Assembly (NCBI GenBank): GCA_963796685.1
Contig: CAWCMR010000002.1
Coordinates: forward strand, 1 to 22,434
Origin: an uncultured delta proteobacterium
GTDB lineage: Bacteria > Myxococcota_A > Polyangia > Fen-1088
DNA length: 22,434 nucleotides
Direction of reading: 5' to 3'
Shown here: piece after piece, positions 1 through 21,565 of the stretch
Position numbering within the stretch: position 1 is the stretch's first letter
Layout of the letters: each line of letters begins with the position of its first letter
Position numbers and translations under genes: made by a program
Notes under the pieces: model-generated
What the model was told of the DNA's origin: nothing
The model's database searches: none
The model's input: only the letters and a program-made list of their open reading frames with translations

Positions 1-331
1 CGCCACCGGCACCCACAGCCTGCGCCGCAGCATGCGGTGACTCTGCGTGGCCCGGGTCCATGGCGCCCAATATCGACATCGCGCTTCCGTACGGGGCGTG
101 CGCGCTGATACCCCCGCATGCTCGACACTCGCAAGCGTCCCTTGTGTCTGTGGACCCGGTAGCGGGCCAACGGACGCTTTCAACTGTAGCTGCGAGGGTG
201 GCACCTGGATCTGTCGCATTCGCTCTCTGGGAACAGCGCTCTGCATGCCGTGTCCCGACGCCAACGTGAGCCAGATAGACCAGTCACCCGTCAGTGACGG
301 CCCACAAAACGCAGAGGTTGCGAATCAGTGA
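1..331 (+). CDS. 3' part of a Cys-rich lipoprotein, duplicate of the 6415-7202 cassette gene; 1-bp deletion at 103/104
   Basis: Bases 1-409 match 6871-7280 except one missing A (cgc-gctgata vs cgcagctgata). Same C-terminus ...PQNAEVANQ*. Confidence 0.8.
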
Positions 332-342
332 CCGTTTCCGAC

Positions 343-413
343 GTCGAACAAGGCGTTGCACCTGACGGTCGGCCGCGGACGGCCGCCCGCAGGTGAACGC
401 CATAGCGTTGGGC
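343..413 (+). repeat. attC site (71 bp)
   Basis: R'' GTCGAAC, L'' GTTGCACCTG, central GGCCG..CGGCC stem, L' CAGGTGAAC (one unpaired base in L''), R' GTTGGGC. Confidence 0.9.
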
Positions 414-635
414 AGGCATGAATGCAAAAGGAACCCTCGCTGGAGTCTCTCAGACCGCAGACTCCTCGCGATCAGAACGGATCCGCCTCAAAAGGAGCGT
501 CCATCAATGCGAGCAATTCGACGTGTGGTACTTCTTGTGTTCGTCGTGGCATCTGCGGGTTGCGGCAGTGGCTCGCAGGTAGACAGTGGCCTTCCTGCCG
601 CCGCTAGGGACGCCAGCTCAGGGGCAGACAATTCA

Positions 636-2045
636 GGCTCTCCTGACATCTTCGTAAGGGGAAATATCGTAGGTGCGACGCACGTCGCCGACGGAGATGT
701 GGGCGGCATGAGTTTCGGGTGAGGTGGAGACGAAGTGCGCACGGGCACCTGGGGTATCGTGTGGCTTGTCTAGAACCCACAAGCCCAGGAGCCCATGCGC
801 GCAACCACCCTATTCCGAAACCTACTCCAATTTCCACATACCCGTGTCCTGGCGGTCGAATTCGATCTGCTTGGCATATTGGTGCACGTGGCGCCAACGA
901 CGACCGTTCCCTACTGCTCAGGCTGCGGATGTCGGGTCCATGACGTGTTCGATGCTCGGGCTCGGAACTGGCGGCATCTGGACGCGTGCGGGATGGAGGT
1001 TCTTCTGCGCTACACCCTGCGCAGGGTTGACTGTCCTCGGTGCGGCGTGGTCATCGAGATGGTCCCTTGGGCCGAGCCGAAGGTCGGCTTCACGCGTGAC
1101 TTCGAGGACCACGTGGCCTATCTGGCCCAACAAGCAAGCCAGACGATGGTGGCCGAAACCATGCGCATCGCGTGGCGCACCGTCGGCGCCATCATCCAGC
1201 GGGTGGTGCCGCGGCACCGAATCCTAGCCTTCTCCTCGAGGACCTCGAACACATCGGCGTCGACGAGTTGTCGTACCGGCGGCACCATGAGTACGTCACC
1301 GTCGTTGTCGACCACGTCTCGCAGCGGGTCGTCTGGGCCCACGAGGGCAAGAACGCTGCGACGCTCGGCTGCTTCTTCGACGCTCTCGGCCCGGAACGAA
1401 CCAGCAAGCTCAAGACCGTCACCATCGACATGTCCGCGGCCTACATCGACGCGGTCACCTCGCGAGCGCCACAAGCGCAGATCGTCTTCGACCGCTTCCA
1501 CGTTCAGAGACTCGTGCAGGAAGCACTCGACGAGCTCCGGCGTGCGGAGGTCCGACTCCTGGAGGACACCGACGAACGCGGGCAACTGAAGAAGACCAAG
1601 TACCTTCTGCTCAAGAATCCGTGGAACCTATCCAGGGCCGAGTCTGAGAGGCTGTCGACCCTCCCGAAGACCAATGCCCGACTCTATCGCGGCTACCTGC
1701 TCAAGATCGCCATCTGCGACATCCTCGGTCGTCGCCAGGTCAACGTCGTCAAACAGAAGCTCGAAGAATGGATCAGTTGGGCCAGGCGATCCAGACTACC
1801 TTCCTTCAAGAAGGTCGCCGCGACCATCAAGAAATACCTGGACGGCATCGTGGCCATTGTCGCCACAGGGCTCAATAACGGAAGAACCGAGGGCCTTAAT
1901 GGCAAGATCAGGGTCATCACCCGCAGGGCCTATGGCTTCCACAACGCTCAAGCCCTCATTGGCTTCATCTTCCTCTGCTGCTCAGGCGTTGTCCTTCATC
2001 CCGTCTTCAAGGTGCCCGCGCTTCCATGAAGATGTCAGGAGAGCC
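636..2045 (+). mobile_element. ISL3-family insertion sequence, copy 1 (1410 bp)
   Basis: 18-bp perfect terminal IR GGCTCTCCTGACATCTTC; 8-bp direct repeat ACAATTCA at 628-635 and 2046-2053; ISL3-type transposase inside. Confidence 0.95.
795..2029 (+). pseudogene. ISL3-family transposase, frameshifted at ~1220
   Basis: Zinc finger CSGCG...CPRCG, GVDE, TIDMS, FDRFH and EGLNGKIR motifs. One G is missing relative to copy 2 (caccga-atcc vs caccgagatcc). Confidence 0.9.
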
Positions 2046-2053
2046 ACAATTCA

Positions 2054-3463
2054 GGCTCTCCTGACATCTTCGTAAGGGGAGATCTCGTAGGTGCGACGCA
2101 CGTCGTCGACGGAGATGTGGGCGGCATGAGTTTCGGGTGAGGTGGAGACGAAGTGCGCACGGGCACCTGGGGTATCGTGTGGCTTGTCTAGAACCCACAA
2201 GCCCAGGAGCCCATGCGCGCAACCACCCTATTCCGAAACCTACTCCAATTTCCACATACCCGTGTCCTGGCGGTCGAATTCGATCTGCTTGGCATATTGG
2301 TGTACGTGGCGCCAACGACGACCGTTCCCTACTGCTCAGGCTGCGGATGTCGGGTCCATGACGTGTTCGATGCTCGGGCTCGGAACTGGCGGCATCTGGA
2401 CGCGTGCGGGATGGAGGTTCTTCTGCGCTACACCCTGCGCAGGGTTGACTGTCCTCGGTGCGGCGTGGTCATCGAGATGGTCCCTTGGGCCGAGCCGAAG
2501 GTCGGCTTCACGCGTGACTTCGAGGACCATGTGGCCTATCTGGCCCAACAAGCAAGCCAGACGATGGTGGCCGAAACCATGCGCATCGCGTGGCGCACCG
2601 TCGGCGCCATCATCCAGCGGGTGGTGCCGCGGCACCGAGATCCTAGCCTTCTCCTCGAGGACCTCGAACACATCGGCGTCGACGAGTTGTCGTACCGGCG
2701 GCACCATGAGTACGTCACCGTCGTTGTCGACCACGTCTCGCAGCGGGTCGTCTGGGCCCACGAGGGCAAGAACGCTGCGACGCTCGGCTGCTTCTTCGAC
2801 GCTCTCGGCCCGGAACGAACCAGCAAGCTCAAGACCGTCACCATCGACATGTCCGCGGCCTACATCGACGCGGTCACCTCGCGAGCGCCACAAGCGCAGA
2901 TCGTCTTCGACCGCTTCCACGTTCAGAGACTCGTGCAGGAAGCACTCGACGAGTCCGGCATGCGGAGGTCCGACTCCTGGAGGACACCGACGAACGCGGG
3001 CAACTGAAGAAGACCAAGTACCTTCTGCTCAAGAATCCGTGGAACCTATCCAGGGCCGAGTCTGAGAGGCTTTCGACCCTCCCGAAGACCAATGCCCGAC
3101 TCTATCGCGGCTACCTGCTCAAGATCGCCATCTGCGACATCCTCGGTCGTCGCCAGGTCAACGTCGTCAAACAGAAGCTCGAAGAATGGATCAGTTGGGC
3201 CAGGCGATCCAGACTACCTTCCTTCAAGAAGGTCGCCGCGACCATCAAGAAATACCTGGACGGCATCGTGGCCATTGTCGCCACAGGGCTCAATAACGGA
3301 AGAACCGAGGGCCTTAATGGCAAAATCAGGGTCATCACCCGCAGGGCCTATGGCTTCCACAACGCTCAAGCCCTCATTGGCTTCATCTTCCTCTGCTGCT
3401 CAGGCGTTGTCCTTCATCCCGTCTTCAAGGTGCCCGCGCTTCCATGAAGATGTCAGGAGAGCC
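2054..3463 (+). mobile_element. ISL3-family insertion sequence, copy 2 (1410 bp)
   Basis: Same IRs; flanked by ACAATTCA at 2046-2053 and 3464-3471. Confidence 0.95.
2213..3447 (+). pseudogene. ISL3-family transposase, frameshifted at ~2953
   Basis: Near-identical to copy 1. One C is missing (gag-tccgg vs gagctccgg). TGA overlaps the right IR. Confidence 0.9.
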
Positions 3464-3928
3464 ACAATTCAGGCGGCTCGGCCGACGCAGTCTTCGCGTC
3501 CGATGAAGCTGTCTACGACATCGACAGCCGAGCCGGTGGTCAGTCCAAGACCGACGCACCGCTGTCGCATGGCTGCGCCGATCCTGAGTCGCTTGCACGC
3601 CACGCGGCTTGTGTGTTGGCCCAGGATGAGCCGTCCTGCTTCGACAGCGGTGGATACTGGATTTGGCTGGGCTGCATGGACTGTGGTGGCACATGCGAAT
3701 GTCGTACCTTTGATGATTCTGACTGCGTCTGTACGCAAGCGAGCGACTGCTTCAACTATTGCCTGTGGAGTCCGGCCGATCCGCTGCTGACGCTGGATCT
3801 TGCAGCTTGCACAAAAATTGCCCAAGGCAGGTGCGATGCGTGGCCGGACGTGAACGGGTGGATTATGATCGACACGCCGGGCACCTGCGTGGCCAGTCCG
3901 GTCCGAGACCACTAGATTCGAGGTAGCT

Positions 3929-4033
3929 GCCCAACAAGCCGTTGCAGCGGACGCAGTCGCCGCAGGGAAATTGGAGTAACATCAACGAACCGCTCGTGCG
4001 GCGCCCGCGCCGCTGAACGGCAAGGCGTTCGGC
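3929..4033 (+). repeat. attC site (105 bp)
   Basis: R'' GCCCAAC, L'' GTTGCAGCGG / L' CCGCTGAAC, R' GTTCGGC. CTGCCCAAC is the reverse complement of GTTGGGCAG at 407, the start of this cassette. Confidence 0.9.
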
Positions 4034-4078
4034 GGACAAAGTTCGGAGACTACACGACGGTCTGGTCAGAGGTTCGGC

Positions 4079-4505
4079 CTATGGCCCGATATCCGGAACG
4101 AGCGTGCACCCAAGGCAATAGGAGAGAGCCCAGGTCAGCGGCCGCACTGCGCATGGTGGAATGCTGATGTCGCCCGAATAGTTATCGCCGCAGTCGCACT
4201 CCTCCTGTCCGTTGAGGATGCCATCGCCACAGCGATTGACTCTGCATCGGGTGCTGCATCCGCCGTAGTTCGTGTCGCTGTTCGCGGTACCGTTGTCACA
4301 CTCCTCAGCGCCGGAGATGATGCCGTCGCCGCAGTAGGGGGCTATGTTCGCGTTGTCTCCACCGCTATCGATGGAAGCCTCTTGGAGGTTGGCATCGGAG
4401 ATCGGATCCGAGGCTGCGATAAAGTCCAGCACCCCGGTCGCATCGGGCGGCAGCTCTGGGGCTGAGAAGAGGTCAGGGTTCCTAGCCTCATCCCTAGGCG
4501 TGGCT
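4079..4505 (-). pseudogene. Myxococcus cysteine-rich repeat (DUF4215-like) protein, 5'-truncated at the IS4 end
   Basis: Two CGDG-x(6)-ECD repeats (CGDGIISGAEECDNG, CGDGILNGQEECDCG). The frame stays open up to the IS boundary at 4505/4506 and no signal peptide remains. Confidence 0.75.
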
Positions 4506-5961
4506 CATAGGTAGGATCTTAATTCCTCAATGAAATCGATCACTTACTGAACGGATGTTCAAGGTAGTTGCAGAAGACACAGGAATCCTCCTACACATTC
4601 GTTTGCGAAGACAAACGCGAGGAGGTTCCCTGTGCCCAAGAGAGACATTGCCACAATCGAGGCGGAGACACTCAGCCAAAAGCTACAGCAGGTTCTCAGC
4701 GATGCCGAGGTGGAGAAGGTGGCTCGCCGGTGTGGCTTTCTTCGACGGCGCCGTGAAATCGCCCCGGCCGCGCTTCTTATAGCCTGCATCTCGGCATTGG
4801 GGGCAGGCACGGCTGCGTGGCTCGCGGACATCCTGCGCGCCTTCAACGCGTTCACCGGCAAGGCTGTTCGCTACAAGCCTTTCCACAACCAACTGAGCAA
4901 ACGGCGATTCCCCATCTTCATGCACGCCATTCTCGAACAGGCGCTCGCGAAGCTGACGGCACCTGTGCTTGAGAGTTTGCCCAAGGGCAAGCTGGCTCAG
5001 TTCTCGGAGATCCTGTGCCATGACGGCACCTCGTTTGCGCTCAAAGACACTCTGGCCAGAAAGTGGCCCGGCCGCTTCACGAAGGTGACCCCAGCGGCAG
5101 TGGAGCTCCACGTAACCATGAGCGTCTTGAGGGACAATCCCGTCGCCATTACGCTGGCCCCTGACAAGGAAAGCGAACGCCCATTCGCCCCCAAAGCGGC
5201 GTCTCTCAAAAATCGCCTGGTCCTCGAGGACCGTGGATTCGAGGATCGCGTTGTCTTTGCAGACACTCTCGACGCCGGAGGATTCTTCATCGTTCGCGGC
5301 AAAAAGAACAGCCGACCAATCATCCGAAGTGCTCGCGACAAGAATGGCAGGCGTATCCCTCGTCTCGAGGGCAAGCGACTCAAGTGGCGTGTACTGCCTC
5401 GTCATACGGTCGACCTAGAAATCGAGTGGAAGATCAACGCCCGCAGGACCTACTGTGGTCGTCTCGTTGCCATCTACATCGAAGGAAAACGCAACAAGAA
5501 GGGCTACACCTATCTGCACACGAATCTGTCGAGAGCGACCTTCACCGCTCACGAAGTAGGCAGAGTCTACAGACTCAGATGGCAGATTGAGCTCCTCTTC
5601 AAGGAATGGAAGTCCTACGCAAATCTCCACAAATTCGACACGGCCAAGTCACCCATCGCCGAGGGCCTGATCTGGGCAAGCCTGCTTGCCGCGACCATCA
5701 AACGAGCGCTCACCCACGCCGCAGAACACGCATGCGGTATTCCACTGTCCACCCAGCGCGCAGCCTGCTCTGCCAAGCATTTCCTCGACGCGATCCTGCT
5801 ATCCATCCTCGAATCTGCCGCGCAGCTCCTGTCGCATATCCGTTCTGCCTTCACTTTCCTCGCGGAAAACGCACCTCGTGCGCATCCCAAACGCGATCAG
5901 GGAATGGGGCGCCTTGCGATGGGATTACGCCATTCCGCCACCGCTTAAGTACCTACCTATG
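4506..5961 (+). mobile_element. IS4-family insertion sequence (1456 bp), no target-site duplication
   Basis: 17-bp IR CATAGGTAGGATCTTAA / TTAAGTACCTACCTATG (2 mismatches) with 5'-CAT ends; flanks ...GCGTGGCT and TACTTCGA... are unrelated. Confidence 0.88.
4632..5948 (+). CDS. IS4-family DDE transposase (438 aa)
   Basis: HDGTS, EDRGF and YRLRWQIELLFKEWKS (YREK signature) motifs; GGAGG before the GTG start. Confidence 0.92.
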   Translation: MPKRDIATIEAETLSQKLQQVLSDAEVEKVARRCGFLRRRREIAPAALLIACISALGAGTAAWLADILRAFNAFTGKAVRYKPFHNQLSKRRFPIFMHAILEQALAKLTAPVLESLPKGKLAQFSEILCHDGTSFALKDTLARKWPGRFTKVTPAAVELHVTMSVLRDNPVAITLAPDKESERPFAPKAASLKNRLVLEDRGFEDRVVFADTLDAGGFFIVRGKKNSRPIIRSARDKNGRRIPRLEGKRLKWRVLPRHTVDLEIEWKINARRTYCGRLVAIYIEGKRNKKGYTYLHTNLSRATFTAHEVGRVYRLRWQIELLFKEWKSYANLHKFDTAKSPIAEGLIWASLLAATIKRALTHAAEHACGIPLSTQRAACSAKHFLDAILLSILESAAQLLSHIRSAFTFLAENAPRAHPKRDQGMGRLAMGLRHSATA

Positions 5962-6216
5962 TACTTCGATTACCTGCCAACCATCGATTTGATTCCGGAC
6001 AGTTTCAAGTCACATGCATTCCAGATGGTGTTGCGGACTTGTCTGGACCGTATTGGGCGACACGATTGGTCGAGTTCGTCTCATCCGTTTCATGGAGCAG
6101 CCCTGGCCGGCTTTGGCGAAATTCCCTCGGCTTGCAAGTACGACTTCTCCCCGCGCACGACCGCGTCTGCCCTTCGGAATGGTGATGAGCACGAGGATCA
6201 CAGTGACGGCGCCTAA
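5962..6216 (+). pseudogene. 3' remnant of a cassette ORF, 5' end lost at the IS4 boundary
   Basis: Open frame from the IS end to a TAA lying inside the R'' box (GCCTAAC), the usual position for a cassette gene stop. Confidence 0.45.
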
Positions 6217-6315
6217 CAAGCCGTTGCAGCTGACAATCCCGCCGCAGGGACATCGGTGTAGAATCGAGACGCCGACGCGGCGGCGGGCTTGCTGCTGAAC
6301 GGCAAGGCGTTCGAC
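6211..6315 (+). repeat. attC site (105 bp)
   Basis: R'' GCCTAAC, L'' GTTGCAGC / L' GCTGAAC, inner CCCGCCGC/GCGGCGGG stem, R' GTTCGAC. Confidence 0.9.
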
Positions 6316-6384
6316 GGACGACGCCAGGTAGGGCGCTAATGACACGGCGATACGCAAGGGGACCTTGAAATTTCTACGCATCTA

Positions 6385-6400
6385 CGGCACACCACTTGCT
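6385..6400 (+). promoter_or_regulatory. Putative sigma54 (-24/-12) promoter inside a cassette
   Basis: CGGCACACCACTTGCT fits the GGCAC-N5-TTGCW consensus with GG-N10-GC spacing, just upstream of ATG6415. Confidence 0.5.
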
Positions 6401-6414
6401 ACGTTGGCTTACTT

Positions 6415-7202
6415 ATGACAAAGACCCTAGTCTTCTGCGAAAAAGCGCACTCCAAACGCGACATTGCGATCACGGTTTCGTTTGCGTCGGCGCTCTTTTT
6501 GTCGGCCTGTGGATCGTCGGGGGGAATTCGGACGGCGGCCCATGTCCAGCTGGGCAGGTCCTTCGCTATGAATCGCCGGGTTGTGGTGCTGCCGCAACAC
6601 CAGTCTGTGGATCAAGTGAGCAGGACGCTTGCTATCGAGCTGTGTGCGGTTGCCAGGGACAAACCATTTCTCGCTGTGATTACGCCCCTGAGCCGTTCTC
6701 TGCTTTCGGTGCATGTCCGATGCCCGACGCCGGCGTGGATCTGGCAGTGGACCGGGCCAATGACATCGGCATCGACGAGCAAGACGTTGGGGTCGACGGA
6801 CCGATCGTATGTCGAGGACCGTCACCCTACTATGGGCCGACGTCCGTCTTTTCAGTCCTTCCCAATGATACGCCACCGGCACCCACAGCCTGCGCCGCAG
6901 CATGCGGTGACTCTGCGTGGCCCGGGTCCATGGCGCCCAATATCGACATCGCGCTTCCGTACGGGGCGTGCGCAGCTGATACCCCCGCATGCTCGACACT
7001 CGCAAGCGTCCCTTGTGTCTGTGGACCCGGTAGCGGGCCAACGGACGCTTTCAACTGTAGCTGCGAGGGTGGCACCTGGATCTGTCGCATTCGCTCTCTG
7101 GGAACAGCGCTCTGCATGCCGTGTCCCGACGCCAACGTGAGCCAGATAGACCAGTCACCCGTCAGTGACGGCCCACAAAACGCAGAGGTTGCGAATCAGT
7201 GA
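6415..7202 (+). CDS. Cys-rich lipoprotein (~262 aa if the G6 run at 6519-6524 is G7); apparent frameshift
   Basis: The 6415 frame gives a signal peptide and lipobox (...SFASALFLSA-C-GSSGG). The 6396 frame gives the Cys-rich body (NSDGGPCPAGQ...VCGCQGQT...CSCEGGTWIC). One extra G joins the two. Confidence 0.75.
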
Positions 7203-7213
7203 CCGTTTCCGAC

Positions 7214-7284
7214 GTCGAACAAGGCGTTGCACCTGACGGTCGGCCGCGGACGGCCGCCCGCAGGTGAACGCCATAGCGTTCGGC
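7214..7284 (+). repeat. attC site (71 bp), identical to 343-409 up to GTT
   Basis: R'' GTCGAAC complements GTTCGAC at 6309; R' GTTCGGC. Confidence 0.9.
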
Positions 7285-7313
7285 AGACTCGACCACCATT
7301 TCAGGAGGATTCG

Positions 7314-7985
7314 ATGGGATTCTTTTCGCGACTCTTCGGGAAGGCAGAGAATCCGCAGACTGATGTGGCCTGGGTTCCAGTGGTCACATCGAGCTCCGAT
7401 GTACAGACCTACTTCGGGCTTCTCGATCGGATTCGCAGCAGGCAGTCTGCGCACGACTACCTTCGGATGTTGGAGTGCTGCGCACAAAGCCTTCCGTTCT
7501 TGCCTTCGCTCGTGTCCGACACCAAGAAACAGTTCGGTGAGTTTGACATCTGCTCCATCCCCGCGATCGAAGTCGGGTGTAGGTACTGGGCTGCCCTGCA
7601 AGACGGCGCGAAACTGCGACAAGTAGCTGAGGTTGTGAAGCGCGTTCCTGCCCTGAAGGAGGGCTGGGGCGACATCGTCGACGACGCCTTCGCTGACATG
7701 GCGCTCGCAGCGCAGATAGAGACCTGCATCGCGCAGAACCCTGGTCTGCTCCAGACGAAGCTGGGTAAGGCTGTCGGCGCGCCCGGCAGGGACACGTCAC
7801 GCATCGTTGCCACCCTCGAGAATCTCGGCCGCCTCGTGCGAAGGCGCGCGGGAAAGACCTCCGAGCTTCGAGTCGCAAGCAGCGAAGCCCAGTCGGGTTC
7901 CGTATCGCCCGGGCCCAGCGAAGGAGCTGCCCAACAAGGCGTTGCACCTGACGGTCGGTCGCCTGCGGCTCCCGCCCGCAGGTGA
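7314..7985 (+). CDS. Hypothetical protein (223 aa) with probable C-terminal winged-helix domain
   Basis: AGGAGG SD before ATG7314. The segment IAQNPGLLQTKLGKAVG...TSRIVATLENLGRLVRRRAGKTSEL resembles a wHTH. The ORF stops inside attC. Confidence 0.75.
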   Translation: MGFFSRLFGKAENPQTDVAWVPVVTSSSDVQTYFGLLDRIRSRQSAHDYLRMLECCAQSLPFLPSLVSDTKKQFGEFDICSIPAIEVGCRYWAALQDGAKLRQVAEVVKRVPALKEGWGDIVDDAFADMALAAQIETCIAQNPGLLQTKLGKAVGAPGRDTSRIVATLENLGRLVRRRAGKTSELRVASSEAQSGSVSPGPSEGAAQQGVAPDGRSPAAPARR

Positions 7986-8002
7986 ACGCCAAACCGTTCG
8001 AC
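7929..8002 (+). repeat. attC site (74 bp)
   Basis: R'' GCCCAAC, L'' GTTGCACCTG / L' CAGGTGAAC, R' GTTCGAC; same subfamily as the sites at 343 and 7214. Confidence 0.9.
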
Positions 8003-8369
8003 AATCATCCTGCCGTAGTTTGAGGAAACTGAGTGCTGGCGGTGAAGTGGCAGCGGCTCTTGGCAGTGGTGTCAGTTCACGGCGTGCTGGCGTTGGCGGC
8101 GAAGTTCACGTCAACAGCGGCGACTGCGCTGGCGCCGACTTGCCGCTGGCGGAAATCGTCGCGGCTTTGGTTGGACCATCTGCGCTCGGTTGGTTGATCT
8201 CACGGGCGGGCCACCGGGAGGTGCGAGGTTCATCTCTTGGCCGGCGGAAATTTGCAACCATCCGAGGCCGTTCGAGCACGACCATCGTCTCGTCGGCCGC
8301 GAAAGCACGGTGACCGAGATCGTCTTGCTGGCCGAGGGCAGCGAAGGCTTCGCAAGGCGGCTTGATGTT

Positions 8370-8432
8370 GTCGAACATGCCGATGAAGCTGACGAAGGCC
8401 TGTCAACTCTTCTGCGGCGATCGCGTAGCCGG
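8370..8432 (+). repeat. Truncated attC (left half only)
   Basis: GTCGAAC-ATGCC-GATGAAGCTGAC. TTGTCGAAC is the reverse complement of GTTCGACAA at 7996. No L'/R' follows. Confidence 0.65.
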
Positions 8433-8479
8433 GGCCGCGCGGCTTTTGAGATGAACGAAAAGCCGGTGGACCAGTAACA

Positions 8480-8764
8480 ATGCAGCAGCACTGTATGAAT
8501 ACTCTCGGACAGCTCCCACAAGGCATGCCCCCCCAACAGCTTGCAGGGCTAGTTTTCGAGTACAACCCGAGAAACCTCCCGCCCCTGGATCTCTCGAAGA
8601 TAACGCGCGATGCGCAAGGGAATGTCGAGCTTCCGAAGGACTGCTATCAGCCTCTTCCCATTCGAATCGATGGGGAGACGTACTTCGTCGAGATGCTCGC
8701 GCTTGATGCGGATGACACGGAGGAAGATCCAGACATTGACGTCGACGAACTACTCAGCGAGTGA
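8480..8764 (+). CDS. Small acidic hypothetical protein (cassette gene; true start may be ATG8451 with a 1-bp deletion at ~8471)
   Basis: 94-aa ORF with natural-looking composition and an acidic tail, ending 18 bp before the next R'' box. Confidence 0.65.
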   Translation: MQQHCMNTLGQLPQGMPPQQLAGLVFEYNPRNLPPLDLSKITRDAQGNVELPKDCYQPLPIRIDGETYFVEMLALDADDTEEDPDIDVDELLSE

Positions 8765-8782
8765 CTACTATCCGGCGATGCG

Positions 8783-8815
8783 GCCTAACAAGCCGTTGAA
8801 GCCGACCTCTCCCGC
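8783..8815 (+). repeat. Truncated attC (left half only)
   Basis: GCCTAAC-AAGCC-GTTGAAGCCGAC runs directly into the stop codon of the reverse-strand gene; no L'/R' is present. Confidence 0.65.
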
Positions 8816-9334
8816 TCAAATGCAAGGCTCCTTCACGCTGCTCTCGTCTTCATCGTCGATAACTTCAATTTCCCAAAGGTCGTTTTCGACAAGCGTGCGA
8901 ACCACGTATTCATGGCCAGGTTTCCCTCGGAAGCAGATCGTAAGCGGATCGTAGCTGACGGAAGGCCTCGCACCTCCGGCGGCGGTTCCAGCCGCCCCGG
9001 CTGCAGCGCCAATGATCGCGCCACCGAGCAATCCCACCCCGAAAGGAACAGGAATAAACATCATTTGAGACTTTTCCTTGGCTTTACTTTCAACCTTCAC
9101 GCTGTGGCGTCCTGGGAGGATCTCGTATCGACCATCGCTGACCTTGCTGCCATCGATCTGAATGATCTTCGTTCTACAATACGTGGGACTTGGCCCGTCG
9201 CTGGCGCTCAGGAGCGCTACCTCGTTGGAAGCCCGCCTTGGCCCGCTGTACATGACCGCTGCGCAGGAGATGTTCCAGAATGAAAGGCAGATTCCCCAAT
9301 ACATCAAGCTTCGCGGTCGAGAGATTCGTCGCAT
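8816..9334 (-). CDS. Hypothetical lipoprotein with Gly/Ala-rich hydrophobic segment (172 aa), antisense to the array
   Basis: Basic N-terminus, hydrophobic stretch and NIS-C lipobox-like site; LPGRHSVKV and FRGKPGHEY beta-sandwich-like motifs; glycine-zipper-like GLLGGAIIGAAAGAAG. Confidence 0.75.
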   Translation of the reverse strand: MRRISRPRSLMYWGICLSFWNISCAAVMYSGPRRASNEVALLSASDGPSPTYCRTKIIQIDGSKVSDGRYEILPGRHSVKVESKAKEKSQMMFIPVPFGVGLLGGAIIGAAAGAAGTAAGGARPSVSYDPLTICFRGKPGHEYVVRTLVENDLWEIEVIDDEDESSVKEPCI

Positions 9335-9343
9335 TTGTGCTCG

Positions 9344-9372
9344 AATCTAGACGCGATGCTCACGGGGCGCAA
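9344..9372 (-). promoter_or_regulatory. Putative sigma70 promoter for the antisense cassette gene
   Basis: Minus-strand TTGCGC-N17-TAGATT ending 9 nt before ATG9334. Confidence 0.4.
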
Positions 9373-9440
9373 GAGTTTTGATGGGGCAGGTGATTGACAA
9401 CGACGTCCTTGGCGAGGCAGATCCTACGAGCAACGAGGCT

Positions 9441-9544
9441 GTCCAACAAGCCGTTGCAGCTGTCAATCCCGCCGCAGGGAGATCGTGTAGAATCGAGGCG
9501 CCGACTCGGCGGCGGGCTTGCTGCTGAACGGCAAGGCGCTCGAC
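9441..9544 (+). repeat. attC site (104 bp) with mutated R' core (GCTCGAC)
   Basis: Close relative of attC 6211-6315; R'' GTCCAAC; GTT is replaced by GCT at 9538-9540. Confidence 0.85.
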
Positions 9545-9632
9545 CGACCGGCGATGGCTCGTCTAAGCTTGACAGCGGCAACCAGGCTCGTCGATGCTCG
9601 GGCTGAAACCATTTCAGGAGTTTGGAGGAACA

Positions 9633-9983
9633 ATGGTCAAAAAGACTTCTACTGCAAGACCGGCGATCTCAATTCGTAGCTTTCCAGGCGCTGGTACCAA
9701 GGTCTCCGCGGCGGCTGTGTGCCTGGCGGTCTTTGTTGGATGCGCGCCTACGATTGGGCAGCACTTCAGGGAACGTGCCCTCGAGAGAGTGGCGTTTGAG
9801 ACAAAATGCCCGAAGGACCAGATCGAGTTGGTGCCGCTTGACTTGCCCCTCGATCATCCGATGCGCTCTGGCGTGCACTTGGGCGTGAAGGCTTGTAGCC
9901 AGCAAGCCGTATACGTCTTCACGAATCAATTGGGTTGGGTCATGAACACGGACAGCTCGGCACCCAATCCGCCCAAGAACTGA
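9633..9983 (+). CDS. Small lipoprotein (116 aa), cassette gene
   Basis: GGAGG SD before ATG9633; lipobox LAVFVG-C; RVAFETKCP...GVKACSQQAVYV with a cysteine pair. Confidence 0.78.
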   Translation: MVKKTSTARPAISIRSFPGAGTKVSAAAVCLAVFVGCAPTIGQHFRERALERVAFETKCPKDQIELVPLDLPLDHPMRSGVHLGVKACSQQAVYVFTNQLGWVMNTDSSAPNPPKN

Positions 9984-10013
9984 GCTTGCATTCATCGTGT
10001 CGTGTCTACCGCG

Positions 10014-10107
10014 GCCCAACCAATAGGCGTTTGAGCCGTCCGCGGAAATAGCTGCGCCATGGTCTTGCAGAGTCGGCGCAGCGGACAGCCCAAACGACGT
10101 GTTGAAC
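10014..10107. repeat. Degenerate, possibly inverted attC-like palindrome (94 bp)
   Basis: GCCCAAC...CGTTTGAGCCGTCC..GCTGCGCC / GGCGCAGC GGACAGCCCAAACG...GTTGAAC. Confidence 0.5.
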
Positions 10108-10239
10108 AAAACCGCGGGTTCGAGAGGTGATCGCCTGTCCCGACGACATCAATCAGCGTCGCCGACGCGTCTTCTTGCTCCTCCGTTTTGCGGGCGAACA
10201 CCCGAATGCTGGCCGCGCGTGTGGTAGACTCTACGCATC

Positions 10240-11091
10240 GTGCGGACATCTAGCATCCGGCATTCCTCGAGAAAGCCTCCAGTTCGGCTGGGGGGTGACT
10301 GGTGTTGCCTGAGCTGGGCTCTCCTTCTCATGCCAGCTTCCATTGCCGTGGGCGCTCCGTGCGAGAATATCTCACTCGTGTTTTACGACAACATGCCTGC
10401 GAGAGCGCTCTTCGTGCAGCCCGCCGAGACACCACAGCGAGTCTCCGCTCAAATGCAGATGTCGATAGATGGCACCAGATCGATGCAAAGTCCTCATTGG
10501 GGGCTTGGCTACCGCGTTCTGCCTTCAAGCTCAGACTCCCGCAATATCACCGGCGAAGTCTACTGGCCTGTCGGGGCTGATTCACCCTCGCTGGAGAGCG
10601 ATTTCCGGCGTGACTCCTGGGGGCGGATCTCCAGAGAAATCTTGCGCAGCCTCCCGTCTCGCAACTCAGCCTCGCTGGAAACCGCGCGCAAGATCCTTGG
10701 ATGGTATGAGTACGTTCGCAACGATGACGGTCGGCTCTACGAGATCGTGTACCATTCTTCCGCCGGGCCCGATGGCGTGTGGCTGACCGACGATGACACC
10801 GTACTGAGCCGAGTGGACATCGACTACGGGTTGGACAGCGCGAGCCCGCAAGGCGCGACAATCCTATATACGCTTGGCGAGCGCGTTGCTGTCCATTTCG
10901 ACTACGACACCGGTGGTCGACTGCTCGGCGGATCCCGAGAGGGGGTCTCCGCAAGCGCCTTCGCTCTCACCAGTGGTCCGTGTGCAACAGTGCCTGAACG
11001 GCTATTCGTCTTGCTTCTAGGTCCACATGGAGGCCCGTGGCATCCCATCAATGCAGGCCGCGGCGGTGTTCGGCCAGCCAGTCCACGGTGA
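10240..11091 (+). CDS. Hypothetical exported protein with YD-like strands (start uncertain)
   Basis: 283-aa ORF with a hydrophobic N-terminal segment; FRRDSWGRI, YVRNDDGRL and FDYDTGGRL turns; GPDGVWLTDDD motif. Extended -10-like TGGTAGACT at 10222-10230. Confidence 0.6.
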   Translation: MRTSSIRHSSRKPPVRLGGDWCCLSWALLLMPASIAVGAPCENISLVFYDNMPARALFVQPAETPQRVSAQMQMSIDGTRSMQSPHWGLGYRVLPSSSDSRNITGEVYWPVGADSPSLESDFRRDSWGRISREILRSLPSRNSASLETARKILGWYEYVRNDDGRLYEIVYHSSAGPDGVWLTDDDTVLSRVDIDYGLDSASPQGATILYTLGERVAVHFDYDTGGRLLGGSREGVSASAFALTSGPCATVPERLFVLLLGPHGGPWHPINAGRGGVRPASPR

Positions 11092-11140
11092 CCAGCCCGT
11101 TCCTACCGGAACGGTTCGGCCATGCGAGAGAGTGCGCTGG

Positions 11141-11182
11141 CCCCTCACCCTAGCCCTCTCCCCGCTGCGCGGGGCGAGGGGA
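11141..11182. repeat. REP-like intergenic palindrome (CCCTCACCC...CCCTCTCCC/GGGCGAGGG type)
   Basis: Stem CCCTCTCCCCGC-TGC-GCGGGGCGAGGG (1 mismatch) preceded by CCCCTCACCC. Confidence 0.6.
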
Positions 11183-11429
11183 TCGGAGCGCGCACGTGCG
11201 TAGCGACTTCTTGAATTCTCGGCACTTTCAACCCGTTCGGTGCTCTAGAGCACACGCTGCCCGCGGCTTCGCCGCGGCTCCCTCCGCCAAGCCACGTCGC
11301 AGCCGCGTGGCTCCACGCCACGAACCGCACGCAACCGTGTCGGTGCTAGCTCGGCATGCGACCTTGGTCCAGCGCGCCGAAAGTGGAAATTCCCTGGCCT
11401 TTGTGCTCGGGCTGGCTTCTACTGCACGC

Positions 11430-12170
11430 GTGCGCTTGGGCCCCCACTGCTACGCTCTTGCTGGATTTGCCTACCTGCCTCCGTGGTCGGTCAACGCAGG
11501 CTTTGTCTGCGGCGAGCGGCTGACTTTGATTGTCGATACCGGTCCCACGGCACACGCGGCAGCTACCATTCTCGGTTACGCGCAAGCGGCACGGCCGGGC
11601 AATACCGTGCTGGCGGTCAACACCGAGCTGCACCTCGATCATCTGGCCGGCAATTCCCTTCTGCGCGACCAAGGCATCGATGTGTATGGGCATCCTTCCA
11701 TCGCGCGTACCGACGCCGATCTTCTGGCAGACGTGACCGAGTACGCGGAAAGCGTGGTCGACCGAGATAGGCGCGATGAAGCTCGATTGCCCTTTCTGGG
11801 CACGCGCATCGCGAACCCGAACAAGGTTGTGGATCGCGACCAGTCTTTGGACCTCGAAGGCGTGACCGCGGAGCTATTGTCGGTTCCCGGCCATACCACG
11901 GCGAATCTGGCGGTGTGGGTTGCTCAGGATCGTGTCCTCTACGCGGGCGATACGGTGGTCAGCGACTATCGCCCCAACCTGGCGTCGGGTACGCCGCCCG
12001 ACTGGCATCGTTGGCTAGAGTCGCTGCACCGCCTCGAGTCTCTGCATGCCGAGGTCTTGGTCCCGGGTCACGGTCGGCTCCTGCGAGGACCAGAGGTCAC
12101 CGCCGAGATCGCACGTATTCGGGCCAGTCTGCTGCGAGCGCTGTCGGACACCGAGACGACGCTTCGGTGA
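11430..12170 (+). CDS. MBL-fold metallo-hydrolase (cyclase-like subgroup)
   Basis: VDTG, NTELHLDHLAGN, PGHT, YAGD and VPGHG motifs. GTG11430 is preferred over 11196 because the upstream extension is low-complexity. Confidence 0.85.
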   Translation: MRLGPHCYALAGFAYLPPWSVNAGFVCGERLTLIVDTGPTAHAAATILGYAQAARPGNTVLAVNTELHLDHLAGNSLLRDQGIDVYGHPSIARTDADLLADVTEYAESVVDRDRRDEARLPFLGTRIANPNKVVDRDQSLDLEGVTAELLSVPGHTTANLAVWVAQDRVLYAGDTVVSDYRPNLASGTPPDWHRWLESLHRLESLHAEVLVPGHGRLLRGPEVTAEIARIRASLLRALSDTETTLR

Positions 12171-12217
12171 CACTTCTCGCGTGGTCTTGACAGTGCTCGA
12201 TTAGCCTACGTGGAGCT

Positions 12218-13090
12218 TTAGCCCTCCTCCGGCGCCACGTCGACGGAGACTTCCAGATCGTGTCGGCCGCCGCCCAGGACCACCCCGCGCAAGGGGGTTA
12301 CGTCGCCGAAATCGCGTCCCACGGCCAGGGTGATGTGCTGGTCGCCCACGAAGATGTTGTTGGTGGGATCCACGTCGACGAAACCGAAGCGCGGCGAGAA
12401 GACCGAGAGCCAGGCGTGCGAGGCATCGGCGCCGACGAGGCGAGGTTTGCCAGGCGGTGGCGTGGTGACGAGGTAGCCGCTGACATAGCGGGCGGCCAGA
12501 CCCAGGCTGCGCAGGCACGCGATCATCAGATGCGAGAAGTCCTGGCACACGCCCCGACGATTGTCGAACACTTCGTCGAGCGGGGTGGCGATGGTCGTGG
12601 CCTTGACGTCGTAGGTGAAATCGTCGTACACGCGCGCCATGAGGGAGAGACAACCGGCGAGCACCGGTTGCCCGGCGGGGAAGGCTTGCAGCGCGTAGGT
12701 GCGCAGGTGGTTCCACGGAACGATGTACGGCGAGGGGAAGGTCATTTCCAACACCCGCGGGTGGTTGCGGTCATGCGTGATTTCCTCGACCGCCGATTCC
12801 CAAGGCACATCCTGTTCGGGCAGGCCGACCGCCGGCACCGTGACCTCCACGCGACTGTGGGCCACGACCGACAGCTCCGCGTGGGGGGACGCAAGCACCA
12901 TGTGGGTCGCCCGATTGCCGAAGTAGTCCTTGCGCTCTTCGCACACGCTGGGCGCCGGCCTTGTCTCCAGCTCCGACCACAGACAGCGCTGGTGGGGCAG
13001 GTCGCGCGGCAGGAGGTGCAGGTCGTGCTGCGAGCTCGTCACCGACTCGCTGTAGCGATAGCGGGTGAGATGACGGATGCGATATCTCAC
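12218..13090 (-). CDS. Transglutaminase-like protein (Bact_transglu_N + core)
   Basis: YRIRHLTRYRY N-terminus; GVCQDFSH, ASHAW and VDPTN catalytic triad motifs; GTGA overlap with the upstream stop. Confidence 0.92.
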   Translation of the reverse strand: MRYRIRHLTRYRYSESVTSSQHDLHLLPRDLPHQRCLWSELETRPAPSVCEERKDYFGNRATHMVLASPHAELSVVAHSRVEVTVPAVGLPEQDVPWESAVEEITHDRNHPRVLEMTFPSPYIVPWNHLRTYALQAFPAGQPVLAGCLSLMARVYDDFTYDVKATTIATPLDEVFDNRRGVCQDFSHLMIACLRSLGLAARYVSGYLVTTPPPGKPRLVGADASHAWLSVFSPRFGFVDVDPTNNIFVGDQHITLAVGRDFGDVTPLRGVVLGGGRHDLEVSVDVAPEEG

Positions 13091-15624
13091 ACCGGACCTT
13101 TCGCGGGCAGGGCGCTGGCCAGGGGCCGAGCCAAGAGCGCGTGGTTGAGGTAGCCGCTGCACAACTGCTCGGAGAGCAGCGACAGATCGCTCTCGATCTC
13201 GCCCAGGATCCCGTGCAACGCGGGACGCTCGCCTTCGGAGGGCGGCAGACAGGCGGGAACCAGGTCCAGCAGTTGCAGTCGGGCCAGCGCTCCCAAGGCC
13301 AGCCGCTCTTCCGGCCGCAGTCGGGCCTGGCTGGCGTCGCGCGGAAGGTGCAGCAAGTGCTCGCGCAAGGCCACGATTTGAAAGAGCACCGAGCGTGGGT
13401 TGCTGTCGTCCACCAGCAGAAGATCCGCCACCGCGGCCGGGTGCAGGCCGGCCAGGTAGCGGCGCCGGTAGGTGATGCTGCTGTCGGCGACGGCGAGCAG
13501 GGTTTCCAGCAGCGCGCCCTCGTGCTCGGCGCCCGAGGCGAAGGCCGCGCGCAACAGCGACACCAACTGCAGGGCGCGTTCGAGGCGCCGGCCCATGTCG
13601 AGAAAGCGCCAGCCGTGGCCGCGGGTCATGCTCTCCATGGCCAAGCCCGAGAGCGCGGACAAGCTGGTGATCACCCGATCGAGGAGGGCCGTGAAGGTAC
13701 CGATGGATTGGGACGTGGCCAGTCTCTCCGCGCGCATGGCCTCGTCACCCAATCCGCCGAGCACGCGAAAGGTGTCGGCGGACAGGCGATCGCGAACCGA
13801 GGCCGCGGCCCGCAGCGCCGCACGGATGGTGTTGTGCAAGGAGCCTGCCGGATCCGACGAGCAGAGCGCACGCACCAACCAAGGAACAGGCTGCGTCTGC
13901 CCCAGCGGTTCGCTCTCGGTCTCGGTGGCCAGGACCGCGAACAAGATGGGCAAAGCGGGCGAGGTGAAAAGACGCGCGTCCCGCTCTTCGGCCAGGCGCC
14001 CGAGCAGGTGGCGGGAAAGGCGGGCCAAGAATTCGGCACGCTCGGCATAGCGGCCGAGCCAAAACAGGTTGTCGGCGCTGCGGCTGGGCAGGTCGGCCCC
14101 CTCGCGCGATAGCTCGACCGGCCGGGTGGCGGGCGGCAGCAGACTGAAATTCACGACCGGACGCTCGCTGCGCACCCACAGGTCCTTGGCCAGGGCTCCC
14201 GCCGCGATGGCGATGAAGGGATCCTTGTCGCTGGACGAGACCAGGGACAGTCCGCCCGGCATGACCTGGTAGTCGTCCCCGAAAAGCACGGCATAGCCCC
14301 GCAGCAGGGAGGCGCGCGAGGAAAGCTCCACACCGGAAAGCACGGGGGCGTGGGCGGGTTCGACCTTCTCCTGGGCCACGAACTGCTCGGGATGGGCGTG
14401 CAAATCGCGCAGAAAGGTTTCCCGGCTCTCGCCCGTCAGCTCTTCGCCGACGACCAGCCCCGAGCCTGCGCCCGACCAGGCGGGCCTGACGACCATCTTG
14501 TCGAGACTGGCTTCCACGTGCGCAAGGGACGCGGCGTCGCCACACCAAAACGAGGGGGGGCTGTCGAGCAGAAGCTCTTCGCCGAAGAAGGTGCGCGCCA
14601 GGGCCGGCAGGAACGCCAGGAACGCGGGCGACTGCGCCAGCCCCGTGCCGAGCGCGTTGGCCACCGCCACCTGACCGGCGCGCACGGCCTCGACCAGGCC
14701 GGGCACGCCCAGGCGGGAATCGGGACGCAGCTCGAGCGGATCGCAGTAGTCGTCTTCGGGATGGCGGAAGATCACGTCGACGGGAAAGAGCCCGCCCAGG
14801 GTCTTCAGGAACACGCGACGATCGCGGACGGTCAGGTCTCCACCCTCGACCAGGGGATAGCCGAGGTACTGCGCCAAAAAGGCTTGCTCGAAATAGGTCG
14901 GGCTCCATGCGCCCGAGCTCTGCAAGACCACGCGCGGATGCTCGCGGGGCATGGGTGCAAGAGATGCTAGGGTCTCGCGCAAGGTGCGAAAGAACGGCGC
15001 CAGCCGGTGCACGTTGCTTTGCCGGAACGGCTCCTCGAATACCTGGGACATGACCAGGCGGTTTTCCAGCGCATAGCCCGCGCCGGTGGGCGCCTGCGTG
15101 CGATCGCGCAAAACACAGAATCCGCCCGAGGATGTGCGCACGACATCCGCGGCGTACAGGTGCAGACGGTGGCGAAGGTCGAGACCATGGCAGGGCCGCA
15201 GAAAGCCCGGGTTGCCCAGCACCAGCCGCGTGGGCAGAAATCCGTCGCGCAGAAGTTGCTGGGGACCGTAGAGATCGGCCAGCACCTTGTCGAGCAGCCG
15301 CGCGCGCTGGGCCAGGCCCGCTTCGAGCTTCGCGAATTCTTCGGGCGCCAGCAGCGAGGGGATCGCATCCAGGCACCAGGGACGCTCGCCCGCCTGCGCG
15401 TCGCCGGGCACGCTGTAGGTGACGCCGTGGTCGCGCACGAGCTGGCGTACCTGTTCGGCCCGTTGGCGAAGGCCGGAGGCGCCGAGGCCGTCCAGGAACG
15501 TGGTCAAGGGCCCCACCGCTGCGCGCGGCCTGCCGGCCTGGTCCACGAATTCGTCCCACGGGCCAAGGGCGGGCCGATAGCGCTGTTCGAAGCTGGGAAG
15601 TGGCGACGGCGTGGTTTCTTGCAT
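13087..15624 (-). CDS. Circularly permuted type 2 ATP-grasp protein fused to an alpha-E domain (845 aa)
   Basis: DRTQAPTGAGYALENR, YFEQAFLAQYLG, DPLELRPDSRLGVPGL and MPGGL motifs, then NLFWLGRYAERAE and FLDMGRRLERA alpha-E motifs. Confidence 0.92.
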   Translation of the reverse strand: MQETTPSPLPSFEQRYRPALGPWDEFVDQAGRPRAAVGPLTTFLDGLGASGLRQRAEQVRQLVRDHGVTYSVPGDAQAGERPWCLDAIPSLLAPEEFAKLEAGLAQRARLLDKVLADLYGPQQLLRDGFLPTRLVLGNPGFLRPCHGLDLRHRLHLYAADVVRTSSGGFCVLRDRTQAPTGAGYALENRLVMSQVFEEPFRQSNVHRLAPFFRTLRETLASLAPMPREHPRVVLQSSGAWSPTYFEQAFLAQYLGYPLVEGGDLTVRDRRVFLKTLGGLFPVDVIFRHPEDDYCDPLELRPDSRLGVPGLVEAVRAGQVAVANALGTGLAQSPAFLAFLPALARTFFGEELLLDSPPSFWCGDAASLAHVEASLDKMVVRPAWSGAGSGLVVGEELTGESRETFLRDLHAHPEQFVAQEKVEPAHAPVLSGVELSSRASLLRGYAVLFGDDYQVMPGGLSLVSSSDKDPFIAIAAGALAKDLWVRSERPVVNFSLLPPATRPVELSREGADLPSRSADNLFWLGRYAERAEFLARLSRHLLGRLAEERDARLFTSPALPILFAVLATETESEPLGQTQPVPWLVRALCSSDPAGSLHNTIRAALRAAASVRDRLSADTFRVLGGLGDEAMRAERLATSQSIGTFTALLDRVITSLSALSGLAMESMTRGHGWRFLDMGRRLERALQLVSLLRAAFASGAEHEGALLETLLAVADSSITYRRRYLAGLHPAAVADLLLVDDSNPRSVLFQIVALREHLLHLPRDASQARLRPEERLALGALARLQLLDLVPACLPPSEGERPALHGILGEIESDLSLLSEQLCSGYLNHALLARPLASALPAKGPV

Positions 15625-15644
15625 GGAGGCTGAGAGAGACTAGC

Positions 15645-18600: not shown

Positions 18601-18944
18601 TACGGCCGCAGCTCGCGGTGCAGATCGGGCTCGTAGCGCAGCGGGAGTCTTTCGGCCGATTCCTCGAGGAAGAAATCGAATGGGTTGATGGCGACGAGAT
18701 CCGCGACCAGATCCACGGTGATGTCGATGCGGGTGGCGGGCTCGGTGAACACCAGTCGTGCCTGGAAATTGCCGAACGGATCTTGCTGCCAGTTCAGGAA
18801 ATGGCTGTCGGGCGCCACCAGCAAGGAGTACGACTCGATGAAGGTCCGGGTGTGGGGAGCCGGTCGCAAGCGCACCACGTGCGGAGAAAGAGAAACCGGC
18901 CGGTCGTAGCCATAGTGGGTGGAGTGGTGCAGGGAGACGCGCAC
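15645..18944 (-). CDS. Transglutaminase domain + DUF2126 (putative amidoligase) protein (1099 aa)
   Basis: GSCRDFAW, DLHAWTEV and GLDATSG triad motifs; MGGEPTFVS, GKWYPGE, TPDPGVLEVN, GTGGGNHITLGG and GNTHRAEFCIDK motifs typical of DUF2126. Confidence 0.92.
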   Translation of the reverse strand: MRVSLHHSTHYGYDRPVSLSPHVVRLRPAPHTRTFIESYSLLVAPDSHFLNWQQDPFGNFQARLVFTEPATRIDITVDLVADLVAINPFDFFLEESAERLPLRYEPDLHRELRPYLDPVPVEARLANLVELCRTSYARDGRRTMDVLVDINQHIQRLLKYDIRMEPGVFSPEKTLTLGHGSCRDFAWLQCQVLRHLGFATRFASGYSIQLKPDEKPVQGPAGVAQDVADLHAWTEVFLPGAGWIGLDATSGLMAGEGHIPLACTPEPGSAAPVTGSYSWQKRSDDDKVEETFSFTMSVARVAEAPRSTKPYSEEVWSKIDGVGHDVDRVLEAEDVRLSMGGEPTFVSSDEPDASEWNTAAVGGSKFRLADTLARRLRYQFAPGGVLHHGQGKWYPGEVLPRWSIGCYYRTDGVPIWDNADLLTPESGQHQPLGGHEAEVFVAELAKRLGVETKHLLPGHEDVFYYLWRERTLPVNVDPRDSRLESELERKRLARLFERGLGAVVGYALPLVRDAEAGWRSGPWHLRREHLFLLPGDSPMGLRLPLDSLPWVAPDEREVVADPDPLAERPTLPARVLLQAAPSTLEKGGEVPPDKGASATGLARTALCVEPRQGVLNVFLPPLTTLEAYLELVSAVEGTAEALAQPVRLEGYPPLSDPRLMKFELTPDPGVLEVNVQPTTSWRSLGELTTVLYEHARQVGLATEKFDLDGRHSGTGGGNHITLGGRTPADSPLLRRPDLLRSLLGYWNNHPSLSYLFSSAFIGPTSQAPRVDEARQDALAELELAFRQVEPGKACAPWLVDRLFRHLLIDVTGNTHRAEFCIDKLYNPEVASGRQGILELRNFEMPPHARMSLAQQLLVRALVAMVWRTPYRHRLVRWGTALHDRFMLPHFVREDLHDVVADLVTAGFGFEEDWFRPHFEFRFPFIGRVQVRSIEVELRRALEPWHVLGEQGAAGGTARYVDSSLERLQVQARNLTDGRHVILCNGRPLPMTSTGTPGEFVAGVRFRAWQPPECLHPNIGVHAPLVFDVFDTWSGRAVGGCTYHVSHPGGLSFDTRPSNALVAESRRKARFQPFGHRPGPGSVKEESPHPLFPLTLDLRR

Positions 18945-19139
18945 AGTCCCAAGCTAACCTCGCCTTGGTTTCCGGACTGTTTCCAGCGGGTATGTTCGCG
19001 CCACAACTGCACGAAAGCCGTCACGCGCCAGATCGGGGATGGAACCGGGAAGTAACGATTTACCGATTCTTCGCTGTGGCGAAACACCCGCGCAATGTAC
19101 GCGCGCTAGGATAATCAGGAGCCATTAGGTCTAAATTCA

Positions 19140-20594: not shown

Positions 20595-20613
20595 ACGGGA
20601 AACGAACATGGTC

Positions 20614-21552: not shown

Positions 21553-21565
21553 AGGGGGTTCTCTC

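Follow-up and report, generated by a model that had tools for sequence, protein, structure and literature searches.

Copy-and-paste movement of gene cassettes belongs to the textbook account of mobile resistance integrons, for which most demonstrations come from laboratory work. Loot et al. 2012 (PMC3458562) proposed that replicative resolution is the cause of duplicated cassettes and of duplication at attI. In Souque et al. 2021 (PMC8024014), aadB-blaVEB-1-dfrA5-aadB arrays are reported to have arisen by attI x attC recombination, with only 'copy and paste' products, and a review (PMC8618304) repeats this observation. The re-insertion at attI of cassettes from integrase-less clusters is treated as speculation only in the relevant passage of Cury et al. 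2016 (PMC4889954), and the paper on IntegronFinder 2.0 (PMC9024848) contains no occurrence of 'duplic', 'Myxococc' or related terms. In this study, we analyzed a stretch of 22,434 nucleotides from an uncultured delta proteobacterium (GenBank assembly GCA_963796685.1, contig CAWCMR010000002.1), referred to below as the window, which is the entire contig C2 (G000:C2:1-22434) of a genome of 26 contigs and 7.31 Mb. The results showed that one cassette, here named X, is present twice in an integron that begins on the overlapping contig C6, with one copy (copy A) at attI and the other (copy B) at array position 4.

The two copies are limited exactly to one cassette unit, and we consider it likely, with a probability of roughly 80%, that integrase-mediated copy-and-paste (attI x attC) duplicated X to attI. 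This would match the arrays of Souque et al. 2021 (PMC8024014), where a downstream cassette was duplicated at attI by attI x attC while the original was kept, giving the order X-...-X; unlike those arrays, the present one is a natural chromosomal integron of an uncultured soil bacterium, its duplicated cassette has no known family, and its intI runs along the cassettes. The model of Loot et al. 2012 (PMC3458562) also accounts for duplication at attI, and the paper names duplicated cassettes of the Vibrio cholerae superintegron, but its mechanism comes from E. coli assays, whereas the present locus offers a sequence footprint only. The process is a known one in a new host and a new integron, and the understanding of integrons is unchanged. 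What the locus adds is a clean natural footprint from an uncultured soil bacterium, with exact GTT-to-GTT identity and one copy at attI, which locates attI and the crossover point in a little-studied type of integron without an experiment. Its added value lies in the recurrence at all three integrons of the genome, and it provides concrete sets of attI, attC and IntI for questions of cross-recognition and of integrase-less clusters.

The original prediction held that bases 1-409 equal 6871-7280 apart from one indel, and both a repeat search and BLAST against the genome reproduced this. The repeat search returned 1-103 = 6871-6973 and 104-403 = 6975-7274 (100% each), separated by a single 1-base indel, while BLAST aligned C2:1-409 with the full cassette X over 410 columns with 0 mismatches and 1 gap (E = 3.1e-211). 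In the C2 copies, the indel reads GCGC-GCTG (about 103/104) versus GCGCAGCTG (6970-6978). Since the window is a whole contig, copy A, whose last 409 bp occupy 1..409 on the + strand, is truncated by the start of C2, and the cut is not biological. The reversed start of C6 overlaps C2:1-744 at 99.6% identity (2 mismatches, 1 gap) and carries a full copy of X at C6:1306-336 (minus strand), directly after attI; this is copy A, because its right-hand neighbor matches window 410-744. Compared with copy B, which spans 6309..7280 on the + strand from GTT to GTT, the full copy showed 0 mismatches and 1 gap over 971 columns (6311-7280). The sole difference was the length of a G-run, with 7 G in C6 and 6 G at 6519-6524 of the window.

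The A at 6974 of copy B is also present in the C6 version and is lacking in C2:1-409, which does not cover the G-run. Because C6 and C2:1-409 represent one physical copy, the missing A near 103 is an assembly disagreement, and it is probably contig-end noise. The predicted single indel thus stands in the letters of C2 but not as a difference between the copies, as the C6 version of copy A has the A. A 913-nt short-read contig from an independent soil run matched 6351-7262 with 0 mismatches and had both the 7 G and the A, and the 7-G form was also present in a second soil run. Copies A and B may be truly identical, homopolymer length being the most by which they could differ. The 0 substitutions across 971 bp are consistent with a recent event, in line with the recent integrase activity that their near-identity had suggested.

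The open reading frame (ORF) of X (6415..7202, + strand) is intact in C6, where 7 G give a product of 262 aa, and is frameshifted in the window at 6519-6524, where 6 G shift the frame after the signal peptide. The product has a lipoprotein-like signal and is Cys-rich. It matched no family in Pfam or NCBIfam, and all of its protein homologues (36/36) are unnamed or 'hypothetical'. A near-identical X cassette was not found in 40 relatives, the best match reaching 74-76% over the 3' half in two genomes (G010 and G005). By the general model of integrons, the copy beside attI, with its intact 262-aa ORF, would be the likeliest to be expressed.

Both ends of the duplicated unit lie at G/TT crossover cores, and the identity covers exactly one cassette unit from GTT to GTT. 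On the right, the common ...CATAGCGTT continues as GGGCAGGCATG in copy A (410-) and as CGGCAGACTCG in copy B (7281-), followed by unrelated sequence; the first bases past the boundary are GGGC after ...CATAGCGTT in copy A and CGGC in copy B. Taken from the longer shared end ...GAACGCCATAGCGTT, the same junction continues as GGGCAGGCATGAATG... (410-) versus CGGCAGACTCGACC... (7281-). The identity therefore ends, as had been predicted, at the GTT of the attC R' box, with different cassettes beyond it (c2 versus c5). Because this identity crosses the whole attC and ends at its right-hand GTT, R' is on the right and the cassettes are oriented +. On the left, GTTCGACGG is preceded by ...GGCGTAGAATATGA in C6 and by ...GAACGGCAAGGC in the window; with alternative spans, C6 reads ...GGCGTAGAATATGA followed by GTTCGACGGACG, and the window reads ...GCTGAACGGCAAGGC followed by GTTCGACGGACG, with the identity starting at 6309. 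A left start at a GTTCGAC core about 560 bp upstream had been predicted; C6, the overlapping contig, has this core 561 bp ahead of the position that corresponds to window base 1.

The attC of copy A lies at 343..413 (+ strand), with R'' GTCGAAC (343-349) and R' GTTGGGC (407-413), and identity with copy B stops at the GTT at 407-409. The attC of copy B lies at 7214..7284 (+ strand), with R'' GTCGAAC and R' GTTCGGC, and the R' GTTCGAC (6309-6315) of the preceding attC, that of c3 (6211..6315, + strand), forms the left boundary of copy B. We located attC sites with our own regular expression (regex), which found 72 across the genome; the + strand of the window holds 6 regex-defined and 2 degenerate sites. 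No Rfam family matched 1-11500 at E <= 0.1, and the sites were therefore assessed by folding and by our own covariation count. The bottom strand of the X attC forms a hairpin of -29.8 kcal/mol (z = -5.5), as folded for the site of copy B, which is identical to that of copy A up to the GTT. Bottom-strand hairpins were found in 4 of the 6 window sites folded (z -3.3 to -5.5, the three non-X sites at z -3.3 to -4.1), while the two degenerate distal sites were no better than shuffles (z -1.6 and -0.9). Across 30 distinct short-class attC sites, 568 of 589 cells were paired and 12 of 20 pairs showed double-sided compensatory changes; as these sites were selected by their conserved flanks, pairs within the flanks are not independent, and the inner stem pairs are. 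These attC sites are genuine, with R''/R' and L''/L' boxes and an imperfect hairpin. In the folded bottom strand, the unpaired L-box base is C in every site of this class; canonical attC sites usually have G as the unpaired L-box base.

Joining C6 to the left end of the window gives the order intI, attI, X, c2, c3, X, c5, further cassettes and core genes, that is, a co-oriented array of short cassettes (ORF plus attC) next to an intI and attI that lie on C6. Upstream of copy A, 207 bp (attI, about 200 bp) separate the cassette from the stop of an integron-integrase gene on the same strand as the cassettes, and no attC was found between the intI stop (C6:1515) and the cassette start (C6:1308). 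Copy A occupies the first cassette position, immediately after intI and attI, which supports the predicted integrase-mediated re-insertion nearer attI. A consensus scan of C6:300-1700 gave no sigma-70-like promoter site. A TAGAAT hexamer directly before the crossover was noticed by eye only and was not used as promoter evidence. The intI gene points towards the cassettes, which we take to be a known minority integron type; in classical integrons its orientation relative to the cassettes is the opposite. A literature search on the inverted intI orientation returned nothing directly usable.

The intI frame (447 aa) occupies C6:1515-2858 on the minus strand of C6, IntI itself being listed as 1515-2579, and matches TIGR02249, PF13495 and PF00589. 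A profile search gave this integrase, IntI(C6), 408.5 bits for TIGR02249, against a cut-off of 265. It aligned end-to-end with VchIntIA (PDB 2a3v) over residues 135-447 (E = 3e-77), including the IntI-specific insert ALPGALDRRAPNAPYAWTLQWVFP, and is a tyrosine recombinase with the additional domain specific to the IntI subfamily. The frame is open, the Tyr nucleophile is kept, and the alignment shows the catalytic R, K, R, H and Y. Like VchIntIA / IntI4 of Vibrio cholerae (2a3v), IntI(C6) has the IntI-specific insert; unlike it, IntI(C6) has Tyr in place of the HxxR His. Its closest IntI relatives (65-78% identity) come from metagenome-assembled genomes labelled Myxococcales.

Three full intI genes of the genome, on C9 (474.1 bits), C22 (461.8 bits) and C6 (410.1 bits), score above the family cut-off, and there is one additional partial gene. 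At all 3 loci, GTTCGAC begins about 200 bp past the intI stop. The first cassette of the C9 integron (C9:33327-32760, 568 bp) is 100% identical to C8:661283-661850. The first cassette of the C22 integron (233690-234428, 739 bp) is 100% identical to C25:1566967-1566229 and 99.7% identical to C10:2333-3064, and its second cassette (1246 bp, within C22:233690-235671) is 100% identical to C25:1563073-1561828. In each C9 or C22 pair, the shared sequence starts at the GTT, which stands behind attI in one member and behind an attC in the other, and ends at the R' GTT. The first cassettes of all three integrons are thus 99.9-100% copies of a cassette that stands behind an attC elsewhere.

A second full-length copy at >=97% identity was found for 8 of 46 cassettes, comprising 3/3 at first position versus 5/43 at other positions; the 46 are those with both boundaries found by regex, cassettes with a degenerate attC being omitted. 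If 8 of 46 cassettes were duplicated at random, all three first cassettes would be among them with a probability of 56/15180 = 0.004, for counts that are not independent. All four duplicate families (4/4) include a member at position 1 or 2. No IntI match was found near the donor arrays on C8 and C25 (1551-1567 kb), which correspond to the integrase-less attC clusters described by Cury et al. 2016. As in that work (PMC4889954), complete integrons coexist with attC clusters lacking an intI in their vicinity, the first cassettes on C9 and C22 being copied in C8 and C25; unlike there, where exchange is speculative, a footprint is seen here, in a bin and with a putative direction. That each of the three integrons shows the pattern suggests that cassettes are still moving between arrays. 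A bolder reading, which we hold tentatively and at slightly below even odds, is that all three integrons have just loaded their attI-proximal slots (1, 1 and 1+2) with exact copies of cassettes kept in their own array or in two integrase-less attC clusters. Copies of an ISL3-family insertion sequence (IS) that are >99% identical link C2, C6, C8, C10 and C25 to one genome, and C9 and C22 are without such a link. If this bolder reading is true and the bin is one organism, cassettes in nature would move mostly by copy-and-paste rather than by cut-and-paste, clusters without an integrase would act as donors in trans, and an IntI with Tyr for the HxxR His would work, or would have done so until very recently.

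For X, the copy-and-paste reading comprises three steps. An integron integrase would cut X out of position 4 by recombination between folded attC bottom strands (attC x attC). The excision would be resolved by replication, so that one daughter molecule would retain the intact array. The free X circle would then insert at attI (attI x attC) of a molecule still holding X. The excision-reinsertion pathway, the younger age of the attI copy and the responsible integrase are inferred.

Several findings weigh against this reading, and the first group concerns the adjacent enzyme. IntI(C6) reads PYTLRHSFATH where both paralogues, to which it is 67-73% identical, read PHTLRHSFATH, and Tyr replaces the HxxR His in IntI(C6) only, with His in 24 of 25 family motifs (the regex for the motif matched 25 of the 32 IntI loci of the family, 7 being without a match). 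The equivalent of this His is not known to be fully essential in other tyrosine recombinases. In the alignment of 25 near-full-length IntIs, IntI(C6) also has the highest number of private changes at otherwise invariant columns, namely 6 (S>G, Y>F, K>R, D>E, H>Y and V>A), compared with 0-3 in each of the others. Each IntI is reported to recognize strictly its own attI (PMC2095811), which makes it uncertain whether the two canonical paralogues could help. Either IntI(C6) works despite the change, or the change postdates the insertion, or the paralogues cross-recognize attI(C6).

The second group concerns the data. The sequence comes from a metagenome bin of 26 contigs with 88.6% completeness and 6.48% contamination, in which a contig break falls exactly on copy A. 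Between C6 and C2:1-744, the two assemblies of this region, there are 3 disagreements (2 mismatches and 1 gap). Sixteen sequencing runs from 10 studies matched the stretch as Logan contigs, with a best share of 0.68, and we compared four soil runs from one study. No junction-spanning contig with >=31 bases on both sides was found among the Logan contigs of these four runs, and c5 (7316-7955) had no cover in them, so that the c3-X-c5 context was neither confirmed nor refuted there. An apparent Logan joint, 6230>7974, was rejected as an excision product, as it is another attC of the same class.

X might instead have moved by cut-and-paste in a mixture of strains, with X at attI in some cells and at position 4 in others; the assembler or binner would have stitched the alleles together, and each genome would have a single copy. 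The contamination of the bin and the contig break inside copy A, where the overlapping contig ends disagree at 3 places, would fit such a mixture. We nevertheless regard it as unlikely. C2 alone holds part of copy A and all of copy B, 6.9 kb apart, and carries the X/c2 and c3/X/c5 junctions in one piece, the X/c2 junction being present in both C6 and C2. No Logan contig joined c3 directly to c5, at thin cover, and the experimental system gave copy-and-paste products only (PMC8024014). Even this explanation is still one of integrase-mediated movement to attI.

Far less probable is that copy A came from outside, as a second capture of an identical cassette from another cell, for example by transformation, that was inserted at attI. 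The exact match to 6351-7262 in the independent soil run, in its 7-G form, indicates that the cassette circulates in the habitat. A 553-nt contig of run X1 shares the end of the X attC (7240-7282) through ...GTTCG and is then unlike c2 or c5, so that this attC or cassette has at least one further right-hand context in the habitat. Cassette shuffling driven by transformation is named in PMC12614218. The array itself, however, contains a donor copy at a distance of 6.9 kb, and the genome likewise includes donors for the other two integrons. From their letters, an origin of copy A in the same array and one outside it cannot be told apart.

An assembly artefact, in which the 409 bp at the start of C2 or the end of C6 are a mis-joined repeat and X is single, appears just as improbable. 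It would explain why copy A sits at two contig ends and why C6, C2:1-409 and C2:6871-7280 disagree in indels. Two left flanks (attI and attC) and two right flanks (c2 and c5) are nevertheless present in contigs, and this calls for two copies or else two alleles. Boundaries at GTT cores would not arise from a mis-join, nor would the recurrence of the pattern inside the long contigs C9 (424,923 bp) and C22 (240,456 bp), with their partners on C8 and C25. Duplication without an integrase, by unequal homologous recombination, replication slippage or IS-mediated rearrangement, is the least probable of all: active IS elements do occur in the array, which has an IS4 element and, between the X copies, two of the genome's 14 full ISL3 copies, but both ends of the unit coincide with recombination cores, the new copy is at attI, and no IS end or target duplication was found at either X copy.

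Between the two X copies, cassette c2 (410..4029, + strand) contains a lipoprotein-like ORF from the ATG at 507 that is interrupted by two ISL3 copies. When both are removed, the frame is open to the stop at 3913-3915 and encodes 190 aa. Its attC, of the long class, lies at 3929..4033 (+ strand), with R'' GCCCAAC and R' GTTCGGC. The first ISL3-family IS (636..2045, + strand, 1410 bp) has inverted repeats GGCTCTCCTGACATCTTC and is flanked by the 8-bp ACAATTCA at 628-635 and 2046-2053, and the second (2054..3463, + strand, 1410 bp) is followed by ACAATTCA again at 3464-3471. The two copies are head to tail and 99.3% identical (8 mismatches, 2 gaps), with ACAATTCA before, between and after them, and the simplest reading is two separate insertions into one 8-bp target rather than a fresh tandem duplication.

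In both copies in the window, the ISL3 transposase is split over two frames (795-1589 and 1172-2029 in the first copy). Domains PF13542, PF14690 and PF01610 were found; NF033550 reached 237.2 bits on the C-terminal ORF (cut-off 180) and 74.7 bits, under the cut-off, on the N-terminal ORF. All full copies of the element in the genome have 18-bp inverted repeats. Of the 12 single copies, 10 lie between matching 8-bp direct repeats; the repeats of the copies on C16 and C10 differ at 2-3 of 8 positions. In its transposase domains, inverted repeats and 8-bp target duplication, the element is a member of the ISL3 family.

Cassette c3 (4030..6311, + strand) contains an IS4-family transposase gene at 4632-5948 (NF033592, 207.9 bits) and a Cys-rich DUF4215 ORF on the minus strand at 4079-4432. 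Cassette c5, the right-hand neighbor of copy B, occupies 7281..7998 (+ strand), with a regex-defined attC at 7929..8002 (+ strand). Further along the + strand follow a degenerate attC at about 8367-8482 and a 5' half-site only at 8783-8810, which is followed by a minus-strand ORF (8816-9334). The last recognizable attC of the array lies at 9441..9544 (+ strand) and has a degenerate R', GCTCGAC. The distal end of the array is decayed, with GGT for the R' GTT at one site, GCT at another and one 5' half-site.

Core genes begin at about 11196; an MBL-fold hydrolase gene comes first, and gene sets for transglutaminase, circularly permuted ATP-grasp and alpha-E proteins come after it. Two neighboring sets of transglutaminase-like, circularly permuted ATP-grasp and alpha-E genes lie in 11196-22434, together with a gene for a 1099-aa DUF2126 protein. 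The G+C content is 0.66-0.69 in 11196-22434 versus 0.56-0.65 in the cassette array. On the other side of the integron, about 1.5 kb upstream of the intI frame (C6:2858 to 4387), C6 encodes a 927-aa secreted protein (4387-7170, minus strand) with many Cys-rich repeats of the CxNGxDDDxDGxxDC type.

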